Shown: positions 30,670-38,026 of the stretch, piece by piece
Position numbering within the stretch: position 1 is the first letter of the stretch
Layout of the letters: each line of letters opens with the position of its first letter
Source of the DNA: a bacterium
GTDB lineage: Bacteria; SZUA-182; DTGQ01
Length of the DNA stretch: 64,000 nucleotides
Direction: 5' to 3'
Assembly: GCA_040752695.1 (NCBI GenBank)
Contig: JBFMGO010000004.1
Span: forward strand, 13,904-77,903
Program-made: the position numbers and the translations under genes
Notes under the pieces: model-generated
Told to the model about the DNA's origin: nothing
Databases searched by the model: none
The model's input: only the letters and a program-made list of their open reading frames with translations

Positions 30670-31740
30670 ATGAAAAAGTTATTCTTCTCCGCTTTGCGTT
30701 TAATTTTTGGAATAGTTTTAGTTTTTGGAATAGTTTCAGTATGTGGAGTATCAATATCCTATGCTGAATTGAATGGATTTTGCCTAGAAGACAATTCAGG
30801 GCAGTTGAATGTAGGAAGTACTCAAGGGAAAATGGGGCAGGAGGTTCAGATTCCTGTGACTGTTCAAAGGATACCCAACGGAATCTCTTCATTTCGTTTT
30901 AAAATTATTTATGATTCATCTGTCCTGGAATATTCAGGCTTTGAGCAGGGAGATTTAGTAACCTCTCTGGATCAGCTTAACGTCTTTGCTGTCAGTACTG
31001 ACAGGCTCCAGATTGAAGGGACAGGAACGGACATTTCACAGGGAGCAACAGGGAATCTGGTGGTATTGAAATTTATCGTCATTGGTGGAAATATATCTGA
31101 AAATAACGGATGTTATCCATTACAACTGGAAAACCTGCTGGGTGATACAACTGATTTATCCACAACAGGAGGGTGCTTCTGTATCAGTCCCTGTAATGGA
31201 GATCTTAATAGCGACGGGGAAATTACCCCATCCGATGCTCTTATTGTCTTTGTGTGTCAGGTTGGATCCAGACCTTGTTCTGATTGTACTGACATAGACC
31301 GGGATGGTATCGTTACGCTCAAGGACGCACTTTGTATCTTCCAAAAGTATCTGGGGCAGCCTTCCTGTTTGGATCGGAGTTCTCCTGAAAATGAAATACC
31401 TCTATGGCTGACCGAACTCATCGATGAATTAAAAAACTCACCGGTCGCGAATCCACCAGCTCAAATAATTCAATACGAATATCTTAATACTACCGTTTAC
31501 TACTTACCTCCGAAGTGTTGCGATATCCCAAGTAATTTATATGGCATCAATGGAAATATCATCTGTCATCCTGATGGAGGATTTACCGGCAGAGGGGATG
31601 GAGGATGTCCAGATTTTTTTACAGAATCAAAGAATGGGATTACCATATGGAAAGATGAAAGAAATTATCCTGTATCGAATAATCCTCAGGTACCCTCTTT
31701 TCGGGGATTTCCTTTGAATCGCACTATGAGGACCCCATAG
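30670..31740 (+). CDS. Secreted cohesin-plus-dockerin protein with a C-terminal 4-Cys domain of unknown function
   Basis: 356 aa with a signal peptide. Cohesin-like: GQEVQIPVTVQRIPNGISSFRFKIIYDSSVLEY...GNLVVLKFIV. Two dockerin EF-hand-like repeats: NGDLNSDGEITPSDALIVF and DIDRDGIVTLKDALCIF. C-terminus: PVANPPAQIIQYEYLNTTVYYLPPKCCDIPSNLYGINGNIICHPDGGFTGRGDGGCPDF. AAAAGGAG lies upstream of the ATG. Confidence 0.8.
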   Translation: MKKLFFSALRLIFGIVLVFGIVSVCGVSISYAELNGFCLEDNSGQLNVGSTQGKMGQEVQIPVTVQRIPNGISSFRFKIIYDSSVLEYSGFEQGDLVTSLDQLNVFAVSTDRLQIEGTGTDISQGATGNLVVLKFIVIGGNISENNGCYPLQLENLLGDTTDLSTTGGCFCISPCNGDLNSDGEITPSDALIVFVCQVGSRPCSDCTDIDRDGIVTLKDALCIFQKYLGQPSCLDRSSPENEIPLWLTELIDELKNSPVANPPAQIIQYEYLNTTVYYLPPKCCDIPSNLYGINGNIICHPDGGFTGRGDGGCPDFFTESKNGITIWKDERNYPVSNNPQVPSFRGFPLNRTMRTP

Positions 31741-31877: not shown

Positions 31878-31997
31878 GTCAGTCTTCCCTTTTTCTCATG
31901 ATTATCAATCTTGTCAGCGTCTATGCTGGAAATCTTATCTGGAAATCTACGGAATACTTTTCAAAATAAATTATTATGTATATCAGGAGGCTAAAAA

Positions 31998-34900
31998 ATG
32001 AAAAAATTAGAAATATCCAGGATTATCTGTATAATAATAGTAATATTATTTGCTTTACTCGATAGTGCGACTGCAATGGGTGGAGAATATTCAAATTCAA
32101 CTTTAAAAAGCATCTATGTTCGCAACCTTACACAGGAATATAGTGGATCGGATGTAGCTCCGCAAACAATAAGGGCTTTTGAGAATTTAATGGAGGAAAA
32201 AGGATTAGAATTTACCATCGAAGGAGAAAAAATAACAGGATTCGATATAAGGCAAATTTCCGGTGTAGATGAGACAGGTCAAAAACATATTCGTATGGGT
32301 CAGACATATAGAGGGTTGCCCGTTATCGGCGGGGAACTGATTGCCCATATCAAAAACCACAATGTCATTCACCAGGTTAACGGTAAATATCTCCCACTCC
32401 TTACTATCTGTGTAGAACCTTCTATCGATGCAGATACTGCACTACAAACTGGGCTTGATGAGTTGCACGGAAGGCCCAGCCTGCGTATTACCAAAGCCCC
32501 CTCTCTTGTAATCTTTGAATCCCGGTTAGCGTATCATTTTGTAATTTCGCATGAGGGTTCACAACCGGGACAATGGTGGTACTATGTCGATGCTCATACT
32601 GGTGAGCTTATTCTTCGCTACAACAATATCCAGCGCTGTGAACCATCTAGAAACGGTTCTCATACTGCTTTGGCTGGCAGTCGCCTTACAGGAGAGGGTG
32701 GCGATACGATAACGATAACTGGTTGGCGTGATAACAGCGGCGATTTTTATCTCGCCAACTTCAACGAGAAATGGGGTATTTTTGATGAAGACACCGACTG
32801 CTGGGTAAATAATGCAATATCGAATTGGGGCACATCGGATAGAGCGGCAGTCTCCGCTGCCGAAAACTTTGCGATGACTCAGAACTGGGTCACGAATGTA
32901 TTGGGAAGAAACAGTTTTGATAATGCCGGCACTATTGCGATGGCCATAATTCATCATGAAACAAATTGGTCCAATGCTATGTGGAATGGTCAATATTTTT
33001 ACTTTGGGGATGGAAATGGTGGAACATGCGGTCCCCTTACATCTCTGGATATTGTCGCTCACGAATACGGCCATGCTATAACCCAGTATACATCAAATCT
33101 CAGGTACTATGGTGAGTCAGGAGCGCTTAATGAATCCTATTCTGATATCTTAAGTGCAGCAGTAGAATTTGCCAGCCAACCAGATGGAAGAGGCAGTTAT
33201 CCAGACAGGATCGCCGGCTATTCTGATTGGCTTGAAGGCGAAGATGCTTTGTATGGTGGTATGAGAGATTTTCGAGACCCTCAGCGGTTTGGTCAGCCAT
33301 CATATTATGAAGGCGTTCATTGGCATGATGTTAATAACAGTTATGATAATGGCGGGGTCCACATCAACAGCGGAGTTCAGAATTTTGCATTCTACCTGCT
33401 TGCCGAAGGCGGGAGAGGAGTGAATGAAGGGCGTCAGTATGACATCAGGGGAATTGGGATTGACGATGCAGTTCGAGTTGCCATGCGTGCCAATATGGTA
33501 TACTTGACACACTTCGATGAGTATGCTGATGCACGAGAAGCCTGGCTCTCCGCGGCAACTGATCTCGGTCTTCCTGCTGCAACGATAAATGCTGTCTGGG
33601 ATGCCGTTGGTATTGGTGGTTTGAATACCTATTATCGGGATAATGACAGGGACGGATATGGAAACCCTTCAGATTCGGTCACAGCCAGTTCATGCCCTTT
33701 GGGATATGTTGAAAATAATACCGATTGTAACGACAGTGATCCTGCCGTTAATCCCGGCGCTTCTGAGATACCCTGTAATGGAAAAGACGATGATTGTGCA
33801 GGGGGCGATCTTTGCGAAGGAGGATGTAAAGATTCTATCTCTTTGGGTGAGAATAAAAATGGTTCATGGAAAGCCGATTGTTCTTCGAAGCACAGATCTG
33901 GCAGATATGCCTTCTATTATACCTTTACTTTAACCACAGATACTTCAGTGCGGATTGATTTAGAATCAAGTGTGGATACCTATCTTTATTTATTAAGCGG
34001 TAGCGAAAATGGTGGAATCGTAGCTCAAGATGATGACGGAGGAGAGAACTACAATTCGCGCATTACCATATCATTATCTGCCGGGACCTATGCAATCGAA
34101 GCCACTACTTTCTCAAGTAAAAGGACGGGTAATTTTACGCTGTCTTTCAATAATGATTGCGGCCCTGAAGTTTGCGATGGCCTTGACAATGATTGTGATG
34201 GCCAGATAGATGAGGGAGTGAAGAATACGTATTATCGAGATTCCGATAGTGACGGCTATGGATGTCCTGACAAGAGAATAGAGGCTTGCTCTGCTCCTTC
34301 CGGCTATGTTGCGAATTCTACCGACTGTAACGACAGTGATCCTGCCGTTAATCCCGGCGCTTCCGAAGTATGTGGTAATGAAACAGATGAGAATTGTGAC
34401 GGTATTAAGGCTGGTTGTGATAATATATCAAAATGTGTTTCTTTTATCTCTTTGGATGTGAGGCAAAAAGGTTCGTGGACGAGCCAATGCCCATCGAAAC
34501 ATAGAGCTGGCAGGTATGCTTCCTATTACACCTTTACTTTAGACACTAATACTTCCGTGCAGATTGATTTGGAATCAAGTGTGGATACCTATCTCTATTT
34601 ATTAAGCGGCAATGCTGGTAATGGTACAGTACTCAAATATGACGATGACGGAGGAGATAACTACAATTCGCGCATTATAACGACACTATCTGCCGGGACC
34701 TATACAATCGAAGCCACCACCTACTGTTCTGAAAAGACAGGCAATTTTACCTTATCTGTTCAGAGTGTGGATAATGGATCACAAGAGATTTCAACCGCTA
34801 ATACTTCAACTTATATTGGTGATGGCTGGTGGGACTGGACTGTCTTCATCGCAGCCCCCACGCAAGTACTCAACCAGATAGATTGCGTGGAATATACACT

Positions 34901-35066
34901 TCATCCGAGTTTTGATCCTCCTCAAGTTTCGGTATGCAACATCGGAGATCCAAGTTATCCCTTTGGTCTCAACGCCAATGGATGGGGAACCTTTTTGATT
35001 TACATTGAAATTACTTTCAAGGACGGGAGCTCTTGTAATTTGGAACATATGCTTGTCTTTGAATAG
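31998..35066 (+). CDS. Secreted thermolysin-family (M4) zinc metalloprotease: propeptide, catalytic domain, 2 x (Cys-rich MopE-like motif + PPC domain), C-terminal YEATS-like domain
   Basis: 1022 aa with a signal peptide. FTP/PepSY-like propeptide (MGQTYRGLPVIGGEL; WWYYVDAHTGELI). Zinc site HEYGH at nt 33060-33074 with GALNESYSD, and GGVHINSG. Cys-rich motifs YYRDxDxDGYG...CNDSDPAVNPGASE and CDGLDNDCDGQIDEG. PPC-like YYTFTL...VDTYLYLLSG...LSAGTYxIEATT...GNFTLS occurs twice. C-terminus: WWDWTVFI...VEYTLHPSFDPP...NGWGTFLIYIEITFKDG. Confidence 0.9.
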   Translation: MKKLEISRIICIIIVILFALLDSATAMGGEYSNSTLKSIYVRNLTQEYSGSDVAPQTIRAFENLMEEKGLEFTIEGEKITGFDIRQISGVDETGQKHIRMGQTYRGLPVIGGELIAHIKNHNVIHQVNGKYLPLLTICVEPSIDADTALQTGLDELHGRPSLRITKAPSLVIFESRLAYHFVISHEGSQPGQWWYYVDAHTGELILRYNNIQRCEPSRNGSHTALAGSRLTGEGGDTITITGWRDNSGDFYLANFNEKWGIFDEDTDCWVNNAISNWGTSDRAAVSAAENFAMTQNWVTNVLGRNSFDNAGTIAMAIIHHETNWSNAMWNGQYFYFGDGNGGTCGPLTSLDIVAHEYGHAITQYTSNLRYYGESGALNESYSDILSAAVEFASQPDGRGSYPDRIAGYSDWLEGEDALYGGMRDFRDPQRFGQPSYYEGVHWHDVNNSYDNGGVHINSGVQNFAFYLLAEGGRGVNEGRQYDIRGIGIDDAVRVAMRANMVYLTHFDEYADAREAWLSAATDLGLPAATINAVWDAVGIGGLNTYYRDNDRDGYGNPSDSVTASSCPLGYVENNTDCNDSDPAVNPGASEIPCNGKDDDCAGGDLCEGGCKDSISLGENKNGSWKADCSSKHRSGRYAFYYTFTLTTDTSVRIDLESSVDTYLYLLSGSENGGIVAQDDDGGENYNSRITISLSAGTYAIEATTFSSKRTGNFTLSFNNDCGPEVCDGLDNDCDGQIDEGVKNTYYRDSDSDGYGCPDKRIEACSAPSGYVANSTDCNDSDPAVNPGASEVCGNETDENCDGIKAGCDNISKCVSFISLDVRQKGSWTSQCPSKHRAGRYASYYTFTLDTNTSVQIDLESSVDTYLYLLSGNAGNGTVLKYDDDGGDNYNSRIITTLSAGTYTIEATTYCSEKTGNFTLSVQSVDNGSQEISTANTSTYIGDGWWDWTVFIAAPTQVLNQIDCVEYTLHPSFDPPQVSVCNIGDPSYPFGLNANGWGTFLIYIEITFKDGSSCNLEHMLVFE
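33624..34770 (+). repeat. In-frame tandem duplication (~600-bp unit, two copies) inside the protease gene
   Basis: 33721-33766 against 34321-34366: 44/46 nt identical at an exact 600-bp offset. The PPC core GAATCAAGTGTGGATACCTATCT recurs at 33963 and 34572 (609-bp offset, so small indels). The protein units are about 200 aa each. Confidence 0.9.
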
Positions 35067-35185
35067 ACCTAAACGGAAACACTTGAAGGTGTGTGTCATG
35101 TCATTTCGATAAGTACCATATTTGTATGACAGGCAGAAAAAAAGGCCATGGATTTACTATCCCATCAATTCTCCCATGAATATCA

Positions 35186-35219
35186 GGGGTCACAGATTAG
35201 ACTGTGACCCCTTTTTTTT
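35186..35219 (+). terminator. Rho-independent terminator after the protease gene
   Basis: 10-bp perfect stem GGGGTCACAG / CTGTGACCCC with a 6-nt loop, followed by 8 T (35212-35219), 120 nt after the stop. Confidence 0.85.
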
Positions 35220-35370
35220 ATGGAGATGACTTTGTGGGCGACTTTTTTTACACTCAGCCTGATAAGACATTCATTCGAGATGTTCTTTTCCGACGAGAAG
35301 AACAGAGGGTTTTCATGGATCAGACAATAGATCAATTATATATGTTTATTTAAAAATTTTTGCTATATAC

Positions 35371-35400
35371 TTGACAAATAGAATATCAATATATTATTAT
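35371..35400 (+). promoter_or_regulatory. Near-consensus sigma-70 promoter (TTGACA-N18-TATTAT), copy B of the island promoter module
   Basis: TTGACAAATAGAATATCAATATATTATTATT is 28/31 identical to 30370-30400. Flanking A/T tracts are similar, and it lies about 165 nt upstream of ATG 35567. Confidence 0.6.
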
Positions 35401-35566
35401 TTATATATATATTTATGTATAAATATTTTATAGATACAGACGAGAGCTCGATCGGTAAGCGGTATAAATTATACACCTTGCATGAATGACCTCTTTTCCA
35501 TTCAAGCTGAAGTCGGTACTCAGACAAAAACCCGTTTTAACCCTCAACGTGGGAAAAGGAGGACTC

Positions 35567-38026
35567 ATGCAATGTAAAAAGAGGATTGTAAAAGTACAAG
35601 GGCGTTTTATTGGAGGTATTAGTTTTACTAGAGGTATTAAGATAGTAATTCTCTTGATCATCCTTGGTCTTACCGCAAGAGCCGGGGCTGATGGAACAAA
35701 AAAGACTTCTCCACCGCCTTCGCCTTCATCGGACACGAAAAAGATGCTTGAGCAATTCTGGCTGGATGCCTATGGTAAGACATCGCCAGGCCCGGCATCC
35801 GAACCGGCCGTATCGTCCACGCGACCTACACCAGCAGCACCAGGTACGCAAGCCACGCATGCCACTCCAGCCATGCCTGGCATGCCTGCCGCACCACCCA
35901 TGCCAGATGGAAACAAGACAAAAACATCACCATCCCCGAAGCCGGGCAACCCGCTGATTCAATTACCCCCAAATGAACCTTTTGCCACCCTGAACAGGGA
36001 ACTTTTGGCTAAGGCCAAACCAGACGAGTGCTTTAACGGCATAGGAAATCCCTACCCTACCGGGCCCCCCTGCTCTGAAGGAAAACCCAAGGTGAACCAG
36101 GCTTATGTCTGGGGGCTGGCCAAGGTTGGCAGTAATATCTGGATTGGAACCGCTCCCAATGTACACTGCCTGGCCATTGGAGCCTATGGCCCTGCCGCCA
36201 TGGACCCTACGATCCCACTGAATCCTCTTGAGACTGACTCATGGGTTTGCGAATTTGGCAGTTCTCAGTACTCTCAAAACTATCCCTTTGTACCGCCTTC
36301 TGCCGGGGACTGGAGGCCACCTCATATCTATGTCTACAATACGGCACAAAAGACCTTGACCGAGAAAACACCCATAAGAGATCCAGCTTTTCTGCTTATG
36401 ACCGGCATCCGATCGGCTGGCAGCATCGGCGATCTGGTCATTATGGCTGGGCCTGGCACGGCAGGACCCAGTAACCAGGGAAGCATTACCCTCAGTGCTT
36501 TCCTTTCGGATTCGGGCACCTATCTGGGATCGAAAACTCTTTTCACCTATACCAATATCCGCAAGTGGCTGGTGGTAAACGATGTCCTTTACACAGCCGT
36601 ACGAAATGTCAGCGGTTCATCCAAGGGCAGTGTGCTGCGATGGACTGGCGAGTTGACCTACCTGCCATCGGGAAAGCCCGACTTGAACGCGCTCTTCAGA
36701 TTTTCGATTGTCGGGAACCTGTCAGATGGAGAGGGTGCCGAACTTGCCGAACACGAAGGCCGCATCTTTGTGACCACCTGGCCGGGCAACATGCTCGAGG
36801 GGGAGGAGATAACCACGGCCGGCCTCTATATGAGCCCGCCCATTCCAGCACAGGGGCTGACCAGCGATGATGCGGATAGCTGGACCAAGGTCTGGCAGGC
36901 GCAAGATTATGAACCTGACTTTGTGACGGCAGCCACCTATGGAGGCGGTGCCCTGGCCTCCTTTGACGGTTATCTCTACTGGGGGACCATGCATGTACCC
37001 TTCACCTCGGCGCTTGCGCATTTCATCATGTATGGAATGCCTGATAATGAAAGGGATATCCTGGCTGCGGTTTTGGGGACGTATCGCCCCATCAGCATTT
37101 TCAGAGGCCGGAATTTTGACTCAAGAAAGCCAGATTTGCAACTCGTTTACGGCATGCCCTGCCTGCCGGTATACATGCCACCAGGCCACTGGGAGATCCT
37201 GCCAAATAAAATGGGCGATCCACTCTGGGGCCTTTCCGGATTCGGTAATTTCTTCAATAATTATACCTGGACCATGTCGGTTTATCGGCATCAGCTTTTT
37301 ATCGGTACCATGGATTGGAGCTACTTTGTAGGAGAACAAATGAGCGCATTTCTCGATCTTACGATCGGCTCTATCCCTGATGAATTGCTCAATCTTCCTG
37401 AAAACTTCTATGGGGCAGATCTTTTCCGCATTCAATCCTCATATATTCCTGCCGTACCCGAATCTGTGGCCGGAGTTGGTAACTATACCAGCTACGGCAT
37501 CCGCACCATGCTGTCTGACGAAGCTCTTTACCTTGGCATGGCTAATCCGATGAACCTGCTCACGGATATGGATGATGACCTGCCGGAAGGAGGGTGGGAA
37601 TTGATCAGACTGAATAATGAGCTTCAGGTACCCATAGATATTATGCCGGGAACATGCCCGAACAGGCTCTCCGTGCTGAGTAGAAAACTTTTGGCTATTG
37701 CTCTTTCAGGCACACCTGATTTCGATGTAAGCCAGGTTGATACAGGCACGTTTATGCTTGGGAAAGATGCCACAGGGGCGAAGGTCACCCCTGTTCGCAG
37801 CATGTTCAGGGACGCAACTACACCCTTTGGAGAAGAACCATGCAGTTGTCATACCCTCGCCGGCGATAGGATTACAGATATTGTACTCTTTTTCGATCCA
37901 CAGGAAGTTATCATGACACTCGGATTAGGGATTGAGGATGACATACTTCTCACCCTGACCGGCAGGCTGAAGAAAGAGTACGGCGGCAAGGGAATTAAAG
38001 GACAGGACTGCCTGTCGATCGAATGA
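35567..38026 (+). CDS. Secreted/anchored 819-aa protein of unknown family: signal anchor, Pro/Ala/Thr-rich linker, putative beta-propeller, C-terminal beta-sandwich-like module
   Basis: The start is set at ATG 35567 (AAGGAGG 4 nt upstream); the track start is 35486. Hydrophobic segment IKIVILLIILGLTARAGA. Linker: PPPSPSS...PTPAAPGTQATHATPAMPGMPAAPPMP...SPSPKPGNP. A recurrent hydrophobic-x-aromatic-x-G-T motif appears in NIWIGT, VLYTAV, RIFVTT, YLYWGT, QLFIGT and ALYLGM. C-terminus: DIMPGTCPNRLSVLSRKLLAIALSGTPDFDVSQVD. Confidence 0.8.
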   Translation: MQCKKRIVKVQGRFIGGISFTRGIKIVILLIILGLTARAGADGTKKTSPPPSPSSDTKKMLEQFWLDAYGKTSPGPASEPAVSSTRPTPAAPGTQATHATPAMPGMPAAPPMPDGNKTKTSPSPKPGNPLIQLPPNEPFATLNRELLAKAKPDECFNGIGNPYPTGPPCSEGKPKVNQAYVWGLAKVGSNIWIGTAPNVHCLAIGAYGPAAMDPTIPLNPLETDSWVCEFGSSQYSQNYPFVPPSAGDWRPPHIYVYNTAQKTLTEKTPIRDPAFLLMTGIRSAGSIGDLVIMAGPGTAGPSNQGSITLSAFLSDSGTYLGSKTLFTYTNIRKWLVVNDVLYTAVRNVSGSSKGSVLRWTGELTYLPSGKPDLNALFRFSIVGNLSDGEGAELAEHEGRIFVTTWPGNMLEGEEITTAGLYMSPPIPAQGLTSDDADSWTKVWQAQDYEPDFVTAATYGGGALASFDGYLYWGTMHVPFTSALAHFIMYGMPDNERDILAAVLGTYRPISIFRGRNFDSRKPDLQLVYGMPCLPVYMPPGHWEILPNKMGDPLWGLSGFGNFFNNYTWTMSVYRHQLFIGTMDWSYFVGEQMSAFLDLTIGSIPDELLNLPENFYGADLFRIQSSYIPAVPESVAGVGNYTSYGIRTMLSDEALYLGMANPMNLLTDMDDDLPEGGWELIRLNNELQVPIDIMPGTCPNRLSVLSRKLLAIALSGTPDFDVSQVDTGTFMLGKDATGAKVTPVRSMFRDATTPFGEEPCSCHTLAGDRITDIVLFFDPQEVIMTLGLGIEDDILLTLTGRLKKEYGGKGIKGQDCLSIE

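Follow-up and report, generated by a model that had tools for sequence, protein, structure and literature searches.

The open reading frame (ORF) at 31998..35066 of a bacterial contig (GTDB lineage Bacteria; SZUA-182; DTGQ01; assembly GCA_040752695.1, contig JBFMGO010000004.1, positions 13,904 to 77,903) encodes a protein of 1022 residues, most likely a Sec-exported pre-pro-thermolysin-like (M4) zinc protease with intact catalytic motifs, which terminates in a YEATS domain of the prokaryotic type (pYEATS, residues 931-1022, 34788..35063). The window denotes hereafter the whole stretch of 64,000 nucleotides; coordinates are those of the window and, unless stated otherwise, refer to the + strand. 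Sequence profiles and a predicted structure identify the tail of the protease as a genuine YEATS homolog, predicted to fold as an immunoglobulin (Ig)-like beta-sandwich. We lean to the view that the tail is a ligand-binding, targeting module of an exported clade of the family, and that it may hold the M4 protease in place by means of a cage gripping an acyl-amide.

Judged by profile comparison, the match of the tail to YEATS domains is far beyond chance. In Pfam, residues 945-1019 match pYEATS (PF20305; E 2.1e-19, 69.6 bits, curated cut-off 26.9), and residues 945-1021 match eukaryotic YEATS (PF03366; E 2e-13, 50.5 bits, curated cut-off 22). Used alone as query in a PDB sequence search, the tail retrieves chains of AF9, YEATS2, ENL, Yaf9, GAS41 and Taf14. 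In PDB, 46 distinct sequences are recovered by a profile made of the tail and 24 relatives; they are YEATS proteins without exception, with E-values of 3e-14 for Yaf9, 1.4e-13 for GAS41, 2e-11 for YEATS2 and about 2e-9 for AF9. The AlphaFold2 model of the tail, built on the alignment of the relatives, features seven strands and a short helix (mean predicted local distance difference test score 89.9, predicted template modelling score 0.77). When this predicted structure was compared by Foldseek to PDB, the best 50 matches were all YEATS (probability 1.00), with query-normalised template modelling (TM) scores of 0.59-0.71; the highest score, 0.71, pertains to YEATS2 (7eie), and the best AF9 match, 6mim, is the Y78W mutant. 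A sequence-only reading of the window had proposed a YEATS-like domain at this place on the basis of its letters, and both the profiles, over their cut-offs, and the structural matches agree with it. The tail sequence given there is identical to the last residues of the ORF. The proposed extent, 34785-35066, brackets the domain well; its start at 'GDGWW' is slightly late, as a first strand, ISTANTSTYI (about residues 932-941), precedes it both in the AlphaFold2 model and in the hidden Markov model (HMM) of the family, which places the domain at residues 933-1022.

The same reading had named five residues of the tail as counterparts of the acyl-lysine cage of AF9. Their numbering is correct on the translated ORF, and all five align with the expected AF9 positions, in columns which are the most conserved of the family. 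H969, S971 and F972, corresponding to H56, S58 and F59 of AF9, lie in the loop LHPSF (residues 968-972, 34899..34913), W996 and F999, corresponding to Y78 and F81, in the loop GWGTF (residues 995-999, 34980..34994); the AF9 numbering is said to come from the 2014 work of Li et al. In pairwise alignments to AF9 and YEATS2, LHPSF falls over LHESF of AF9, and GWGTF over GYAGF of AF9, matching GWGEF of YEATS2. The “serine-lined aromatic cage” of YEATS domains is described in a review (PMC8556138).

Conservation was measured on the family at large. A HMMER scan of 1.84 billion representatives yielded 3760 proteins (representative clusters) at E ≤ 0.001, the lower-scoring part of which may include eukaryotic YEATS, and 1338 at E ≤ 1e-10; architectures were analysed in 146 family representatives, leaders in 239 proteins, domain columns in 323 domain instances aligned to the family HMM, and gene contexts in 61 genome loci. 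Among the 323 domains, H969 is conserved in 288, S or T at position 971 in 302, F972 in 296, G995 in 295, W996 in 290, G997 in 304 and F999 in 310. The cage positions are among the few near-invariant columns, both in the 146 proteins and in the 323 domains, and are maintained in stand-alone and tandem members as well as in members fused to peptidases, TIR domains and binding proteins. Conservation over so different architectures argues for a common binding function. The tail deviates from the family at two positions. W944 (34827-34829) is a tryptophan directly preceding the invariant W-D-W, at a place where most members carry arginine; C1013 (35034-35036) is an extra unpaired cysteine, in a column that most members fill with Q, R or K.

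The protein carrying the tail has the organization of a secreted zinc protease. An AGGAGG Shine-Dalgarno sequence (31985..31990), read in the sequence, lies 7 nucleotides 5' of the ATG at 31998, and the N-terminus (MKKLEISRIICIIIVILFALLDSATA, with cleavage predicted before MG) shows the n-, h- and c-regions of a Sec signal peptide. The predicted signal peptide spans residues 1-26 (31998..32075), from MKK through a hydrophobic core to SATA; the hydrophobicity heuristic is strongly positive (3.8), and the A-x-A cleavage motif was spotted by eye. The propeptide (32265..32612) includes an FTP domain (residues 90-130; 39.2 bits in Pfam, over the cut-off) and a PepSY-like domain (residues 143-205; 20.0 bits, slightly under the cut-off of 24). 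The thermolysin-type catalytic domain (residues 254-539, 32757..33614) is made of Peptidase_M4 (PF01447, residues 254-363, E 2e-22) and Peptidase_M4_C (PF02868, residues 366-539, E 2.8e-33), and hosts a complete zinc site, HEYGH at 355-359 and NESYSD at 378-383, which correspond to HEXXH and to the NExxSD motif with the downstream Glu ligand. Both M4 domains and the zinc motifs assign the protein to peptidase family M4, as does the pre-pro layout, in which the signal peptide is called by heuristic and PepSY is sub-threshold. In the C-terminal extension Pfam detects the Cys-rich motif Cu-binding_MopE in 3 stretches and PPC in 2. These build two modules, each combining a Cys-rich (MopE-like) part with PPC, at about residues 541-736 (33618..34205) and 737-930 (34206..34787; MopE 776-803, PPC 843-906), which are the product of an internal tandem duplication (63% identity over 180 residues, E 2e-74). 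Eight residues, QSVDNGSQ, close the second module and link it to pYEATS. A strong intrinsic terminator (35185..35220; 11-bp stem with 7 G-C pairs, and a T-run) is located about 120 nucleotides 3' of the stop codon. Having AGGAGG before its ATG and a terminator after its stop, the gene is self-contained, and pYEATS is the true C-terminus of its product. The signal peptide, the thermolysin-type domain and the PPC domains had already been recognized from the letters of the window; Pfam, the zinc motifs and the N-terminal leader uphold this layout, and the pYEATS domain of such a protein is predicted to be extracytoplasmic. The M4 propeptide and the high number of cysteines in the protein likewise point to export.

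Export is a property of the relatives as well. The closest relatives of the tail (43-61% identity) are short stand-alone proteins of 82-180 residues which match both YEATS Pfam models, and nearly all of them open with a signal peptide or an N-terminal transmembrane anchor; the nearest, up to 61% identical, are signal peptide-bearing stand-alone or tandem proteins. In the family, an N-terminal hydrophobic leader was scored by heuristic in 74% of 239 proteins, compared to 26% of background ORFs; a stricter rule lowers these shares to 56% and 16%. The sequence-only reading had held bacterial YEATS domains to be mainly intracellular, and had viewed the protease tail as exceptional on this basis; the closest relatives being overwhelmingly exported, this premise finds no support. 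The start of the tail, QEISTANTS..., coincides with the start of the mature chains in signal peptide-bearing stand-alone relatives, whose mature ends (QEISASNTSRFLGQGRWEWTV...) align with QEISTANTSTYIGDGWWDWTV of the window protein. On these alignments the tail looks like the mature part of a stand-alone pYEATS gene, joined to the protease by the 8-residue linker. A pair of cysteines, C963 (34884-34886) and C980 (34935-34937), delimits the segment 34884..34937 and probably forms a disulfide, as suggested by covariation: in the alignment of 323 domains both equivalents are present in 207, neither in 110, and just one in 6. At the protein level the pair tracks with export signals (odds ratio 9.4, a statistic which ignores shared ancestry). 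All hallmarks of the exported clade are found in the window protein, namely a predicted upstream signal peptide, a first strand of the type NTS-x-Y-x-G, and the Cys pair.

Two recurrent settings emerged from the 61 pYEATS loci, retrieved by scanning 185,579 species genomes (the species of the window is not among the representatives; the match lies at about 8001 in most loci). In 21 of them exported single or tandem pYEATS genes are found directly downstream of a gene encoding a conserved membrane protein of 170-229 residues, which has two transmembrane helices and a coiled coil and is rich in beta structure towards its C-terminus (L005, L009, L010, L014, L015, L018-L020, L022, L023, L026, L028, L030, L033, L034, L037-L039, L043, L050 and L052). 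The distance between the two genes ranges from -3 to +9 nucleotides in 19 of the 21. The contexts of two stand-alone pYEATS genes are uninformative taken singly; one of these members, P0019, is preceded by a gene for 179 residues, similar in size to the two-helix partner, with the same 4-nucleotide overlap. In 17 loci (L042, L045-L049, L051, L053, L054 and L056-L063), pYEATS genes which are leaderless and Cys-free reside directly downstream of a gene encoding a conserved protein of about 227 residues (MRIFVAYGYNDRDKWI...). This is the intracellular conflict-type setting that the sequence-only reading had associated with bacterial YEATS domains. One of these loci, L060, belongs to an archaeon, a Methanothrix metagenome-assembled genome (MAG), and some of them include putative STAND NTPase-like and patatin-type lipase-like genes, recognized by eye. 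Neither partner could be assigned to a family by Pfam, NCBIfam, PADLOC or PDB sequence search, the protein of about 227 residues giving a sub-threshold NCBIfam match only; a TIR-like look of the latter was an unconfirmed impression and has been dropped. PADLOC defence models match neither the tail, nor its neighbours, nor the family partners, and the window hosts no homolog of either partner and no second pYEATS. The tail differs from the leaderless type in three respects: the Cys pair is present, the host protein is exported, and the window contains none of the partner genes. An intracellular conflict-system role was rejected for this copy on the same grounds.

Fusions are frequent in the family. 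Among the 146 representatives, pYEATS is associated with Peptidase_C14 in 10, Peptidase_C1 in 7, TIR in 5, CarboxypepD_reg in 5, PEGA in 3, and with WD40-type propellers in several; further partners are periplasmic-binding-protein, ARPP-1 and FG-GAP/MORN domains. One member, checked individually, carries a signal peptide, a matrixin-like M10 peptidase and three pYEATS, and weak matches to M48 and MA-clan models were noted in others. Of 77 multidomain members, 70 have pYEATS at their very C-terminus. A predicted transmembrane helix separates TIR from pYEATS in 4 of the 5 TIR fusions of the exported clade (P0232, P0235, P0249 and P0291), a layout implying a cytoplasmic TIR and an outward pYEATS, hence a possible transmembrane sensor. 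It echoes the nSTAND1+TM+prokYEATS architecture, in which a transmembrane segment is likewise interposed, and which figures among the supplementary entries of Kaur et al. 2021 (PMC8195603).

The M4 fusion is another matter. At E ≤ 1e-10 the protease has 2076 M4 relatives, whose catalytic regions reach 56% identity to its own, and among the best 120 of them pYEATS occurs in the window protein only; the others terminate in PPC, FG-GAP/VCBS, FN3, cohesin/dockerin, Calx-beta and other modules. A search with the segment comprising the second PPC and pYEATS gave 300 matches, and the matches listed carry PPC or pYEATS, never both. M4 fusions are missing from the 61 pYEATS loci; no ortholog was found in JGI metagenomes, where the sole match was a trivial one of 13 residues, nor in a word-indexed database of 5.8 billion protein clusters, searched with limited sensitivity. 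Best matches overall come from Desulfobacterota-type MAGs and their relatives: a protein of Candidatus Magnetoglobus multicellularis shares 60% identity with the PPC module, NaphS2 and Desulfacyla share 52% with the pYEATS domain, and M4 relatives stem from a wide range of MAGs, including Desulfobacteria and Candidatus Electrothrix. What is new is the combination of M4, PPC and pYEATS; exported peptidases with a C-terminal pYEATS recur, in the C14, C1 and M10 families. The domain had been rated as the most novel feature of the window. In the architecture survey the M4-PPC-YEATS arrangement is so far unique; the domain, however, is in Pfam and in published tables, and peptidase-YEATS fusions are found in databases and in a table of 2016. 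The claim of exceptional novelty is weakened because exported pYEATS proteins, protease-fused ones included, are common in sequence databases. The JGI pipeline labels many family proteins “transcription initiation factor IIF auxiliary subunit”, which we take to be the name given in COG to Tfg3/Taf14, a YEATS protein of yeast; automated annotation thus already sees the homology.

Set against known systems, the tail is a direct member of Pfam pYEATS, sharing the core motifs WxWTV, VEYxLHP[ST]F and GWGxF and the usual C-terminal position. It differs from the other members because none of them was found with an M4 protease or PPC, and because of W944, C1013 and the lack of operon partners. With the eukaryotic YEATS domains (AF9/ENL, GAS41, YEATS2, Yaf9, Taf14), readers of histone acetyl- and crotonyl-lysine, the tail has in common the predicted fold and the cage residues of both loops. 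In contrast to them, it comprises seven strands in some 90 residues, is missing both their first strand and the helices at their C-terminus (target-normalised TM scores 0.46-0.65), is predicted to be exported and probably disulfide-bonded rather than nuclear, and has no histone target. The order of signal peptide, peptidase and at least one C-terminal pYEATS is the same as in the exported fusions with caspase-like C14, papain-like C1 and matrixin-like M10 peptidases, but the peptidase is of another clan (M4, with an FTP/PepSY propeptide), and two Cys-rich+PPC modules are interposed. Secreted M4 proteases of the thermolysin/vibriolysin type with PPC share the signal peptide, FTP/PepSY, the HEXXH...NExxSD motifs and PPC, and differ in that their best 120 representatives carry other C-terminal modules in place of pYEATS.

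Literature traces of bacterial YEATS domains are confined, as far as we found, to the tables of architectures supplementing Kaur et al. (eLife 2021, PMC8195603), where “prokYEATS” and “YEATS” are listed, and to a single “Metacaspase|YEATS” row in a table of a 2016 Baltic Sea metagenome survey (PMC4933709). In Kaur et al. 2020, “Yeats” is the name of an author, and the supplement has no YEATS entry. Searches pairing YEATS with secretion returned nothing relevant. According to a 2021 review of bacterial lysine acylation (PMC8556138), bacteria have no known acyl-lysine reader domain; whether they possess bromodomains or YEATS domains is raised there as a question.

How may the tail work? The cage (H969, S971, F972, G995-W996-G997 and F999) would grip a planar acyl-amide displayed outside the cytoplasm, as the corresponding cage does in eukaryotic YEATS domains, where it clamps the planar amide of N-epsilon-acyl-lysine. 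Candidate ligands, which are our suggestions, include acetamido groups and the acylated side chain of lysine or diaminopimelate (DAP), for instance in a surface protein or a peptidoglycan cross-link. Once bound, the domain would keep the protease, or a processed C-terminal fragment of it, on the substrate or on the cell surface. The recurrence of C-terminal pYEATS on exported peptidases of unrelated clans suggests the targeting role. Taken together, cage conservation and recurrent peptidase fusion make it plausible that the tail reads acyl-lysine and targets the protease, as the sequence-only reading had surmised.

Several observations weigh against this scenario. M4 proteases often lose their C-terminal extensions of the PPC type once secreted, and pYEATS may consequently not stay on the mature enzyme. 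The sixth cage residue of AF9, F28 (H43 in GAS41), has no clear counterpart in the alignment, as the loop is about 6 residues shorter in the bacterial family, and the pocket may therefore differ from that of AF9; W944 is a candidate for the F28 position, yet is replaced by Arg in most of the family. The cage pocket of the tail is predicted from alignment, the proximity of C963 and C980 from covariation, and the export signal of the protease is called by a crude hydrophobicity heuristic and by eye. The M4+PPC+pYEATS protein is so far a singleton, from which selection on the fusion cannot be inferred. Finally, the searchable literature contains no paper on the function or the location of bacterial YEATS domains, and no binding data for any of them.

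Other explanations may account for the same data. The cage could bind the acetamido group of a sugar (N-acetylglucosamine or N-acetylmuramic acid of peptidoglycan, chitin, exopolysaccharide), and the tail act as an anchor to walls or detritus, similarly to a carbohydrate-binding module. We rate this as unlikely. Among the amides found outside bacterial cells, N-acetyl sugars are the most abundant, and the residues suited to grip a planar amide are conserved. M4 relatives carry at the same place many glycan- or surface-binding modules, and some family members pair pYEATS with CarboxypepD_reg or with PEGA, described as peptidoglycan-associating by Kaur et al. 2020. Yet the pocket of solved YEATS domains takes a long aliphatic lysine chain, and glycan-active enzymes are not in conserved linkage with family members in the 61 loci; moreover, we know of no YEATS domain that binds sugars. 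Less credit is given to the hypothesis that the tail is a ligand-free Ig-like module assisting folding or secretion, or a mere spacer, clipped off along with PPC at maturation, its conserved residues being structural. Processing of PPC-type M4 extensions is common, C-terminal modules are highly variable among M4 relatives, and the fusion is a singleton, all of which would fit. Structural needs explain poorly, however, why the most conserved columns are the ligand-cage loop residues of solved YEATS domains, throughout diverse architectures, and in exported pYEATS proteins that stand alone there is nothing for the domain to chaperone.

It is a shade more doubtful still that the tail docks, by protein-protein contact, on an envelope partner dedicated to it, fixing the protease on the surface of the producer itself. 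The 21 genomes in which an exported pYEATS gene directly follows the gene of the two-helix membrane protein suggest a partner pair; but the window lacks a homolog of this partner, which belongs to no recognisable family and is absent from the peptidase fusions. As the architecture was met in a single sequence across the databases searched, a chimeric assembly, or two genes joined by loss of a stop codon, was considered too. Such an artefact is highly improbable: the ORF is continuous, G+C content is 43.3% in the tail and 43.7% in the whole gene, and a terminator follows the stop codon. It was rejected because the 8-residue linker is clean, with no relic of the signal peptide that stand-alone relatives carry.

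The neighbours of the protease gene in the window are those of an ordinary chromosome, and include genes for a histidine kinase, znuABC-like functions, CvpA, a PpiD/SurA-like rotamase and MreB. The gene directly upstream (30670-31740, +) encodes a protein of 356 residues with a hydrophobic N-terminal leader, a cohesin, a weak dockerin and a C-terminal DUF6970, which may be another component of an extracellular assembly beside the protease. The next gene downstream (35486-38026, +) encodes 846 residues, with a hydrophobic N-terminal segment and a linker rich in Pro, Ala and Thr; no match to this product was found in Pfam, NCBIfam or PADLOC. A near-consensus promoter-like site, TTGACA-18-TATTAT, is found at 35371-35400. 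On the opposite strand, an ORF of 97 residues (34806-35099, -) overlaps the region encoding pYEATS; it is most likely spurious, because of the strong protein-level conservation on the + strand.

Bacterial YEATS domains which keep the cage residues are numerous, the clade nearest to the tail is mostly extracytoplasmic, and its members are repeatedly found on exported proteases. A targeting principle for secreted proteases is thus suggested; within this theme the M4 fusion is one more combination, and no new kind of system. A broader generalization, to which we give limited credence, is that the exported pYEATS clade provides bacteria widely with an extracytoplasmic reader of acylated amines, stabilised by a disulfide, which would recognise N-epsilon-acylated lysine or DAP, or a similar amide mark, on the cell envelope or on surface proteins, for instance in peptidoglycan cross-links or acylated surface proteins. 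According to this hypothesis, pYEATS would aim exported proteases of the M4, C14, C1 and M10 families, and TIR-pYEATS proteins with an intervening transmembrane helix would signal across the membrane. If this were true, the question of whether bacteria have acyl-lysine readers would be answered, and the origin of the histone reader would be placed in envelope biology. As pYEATS is small and soluble, with about 90 residues, it makes the question of a bacterial acyl-lysine reader directly testable.

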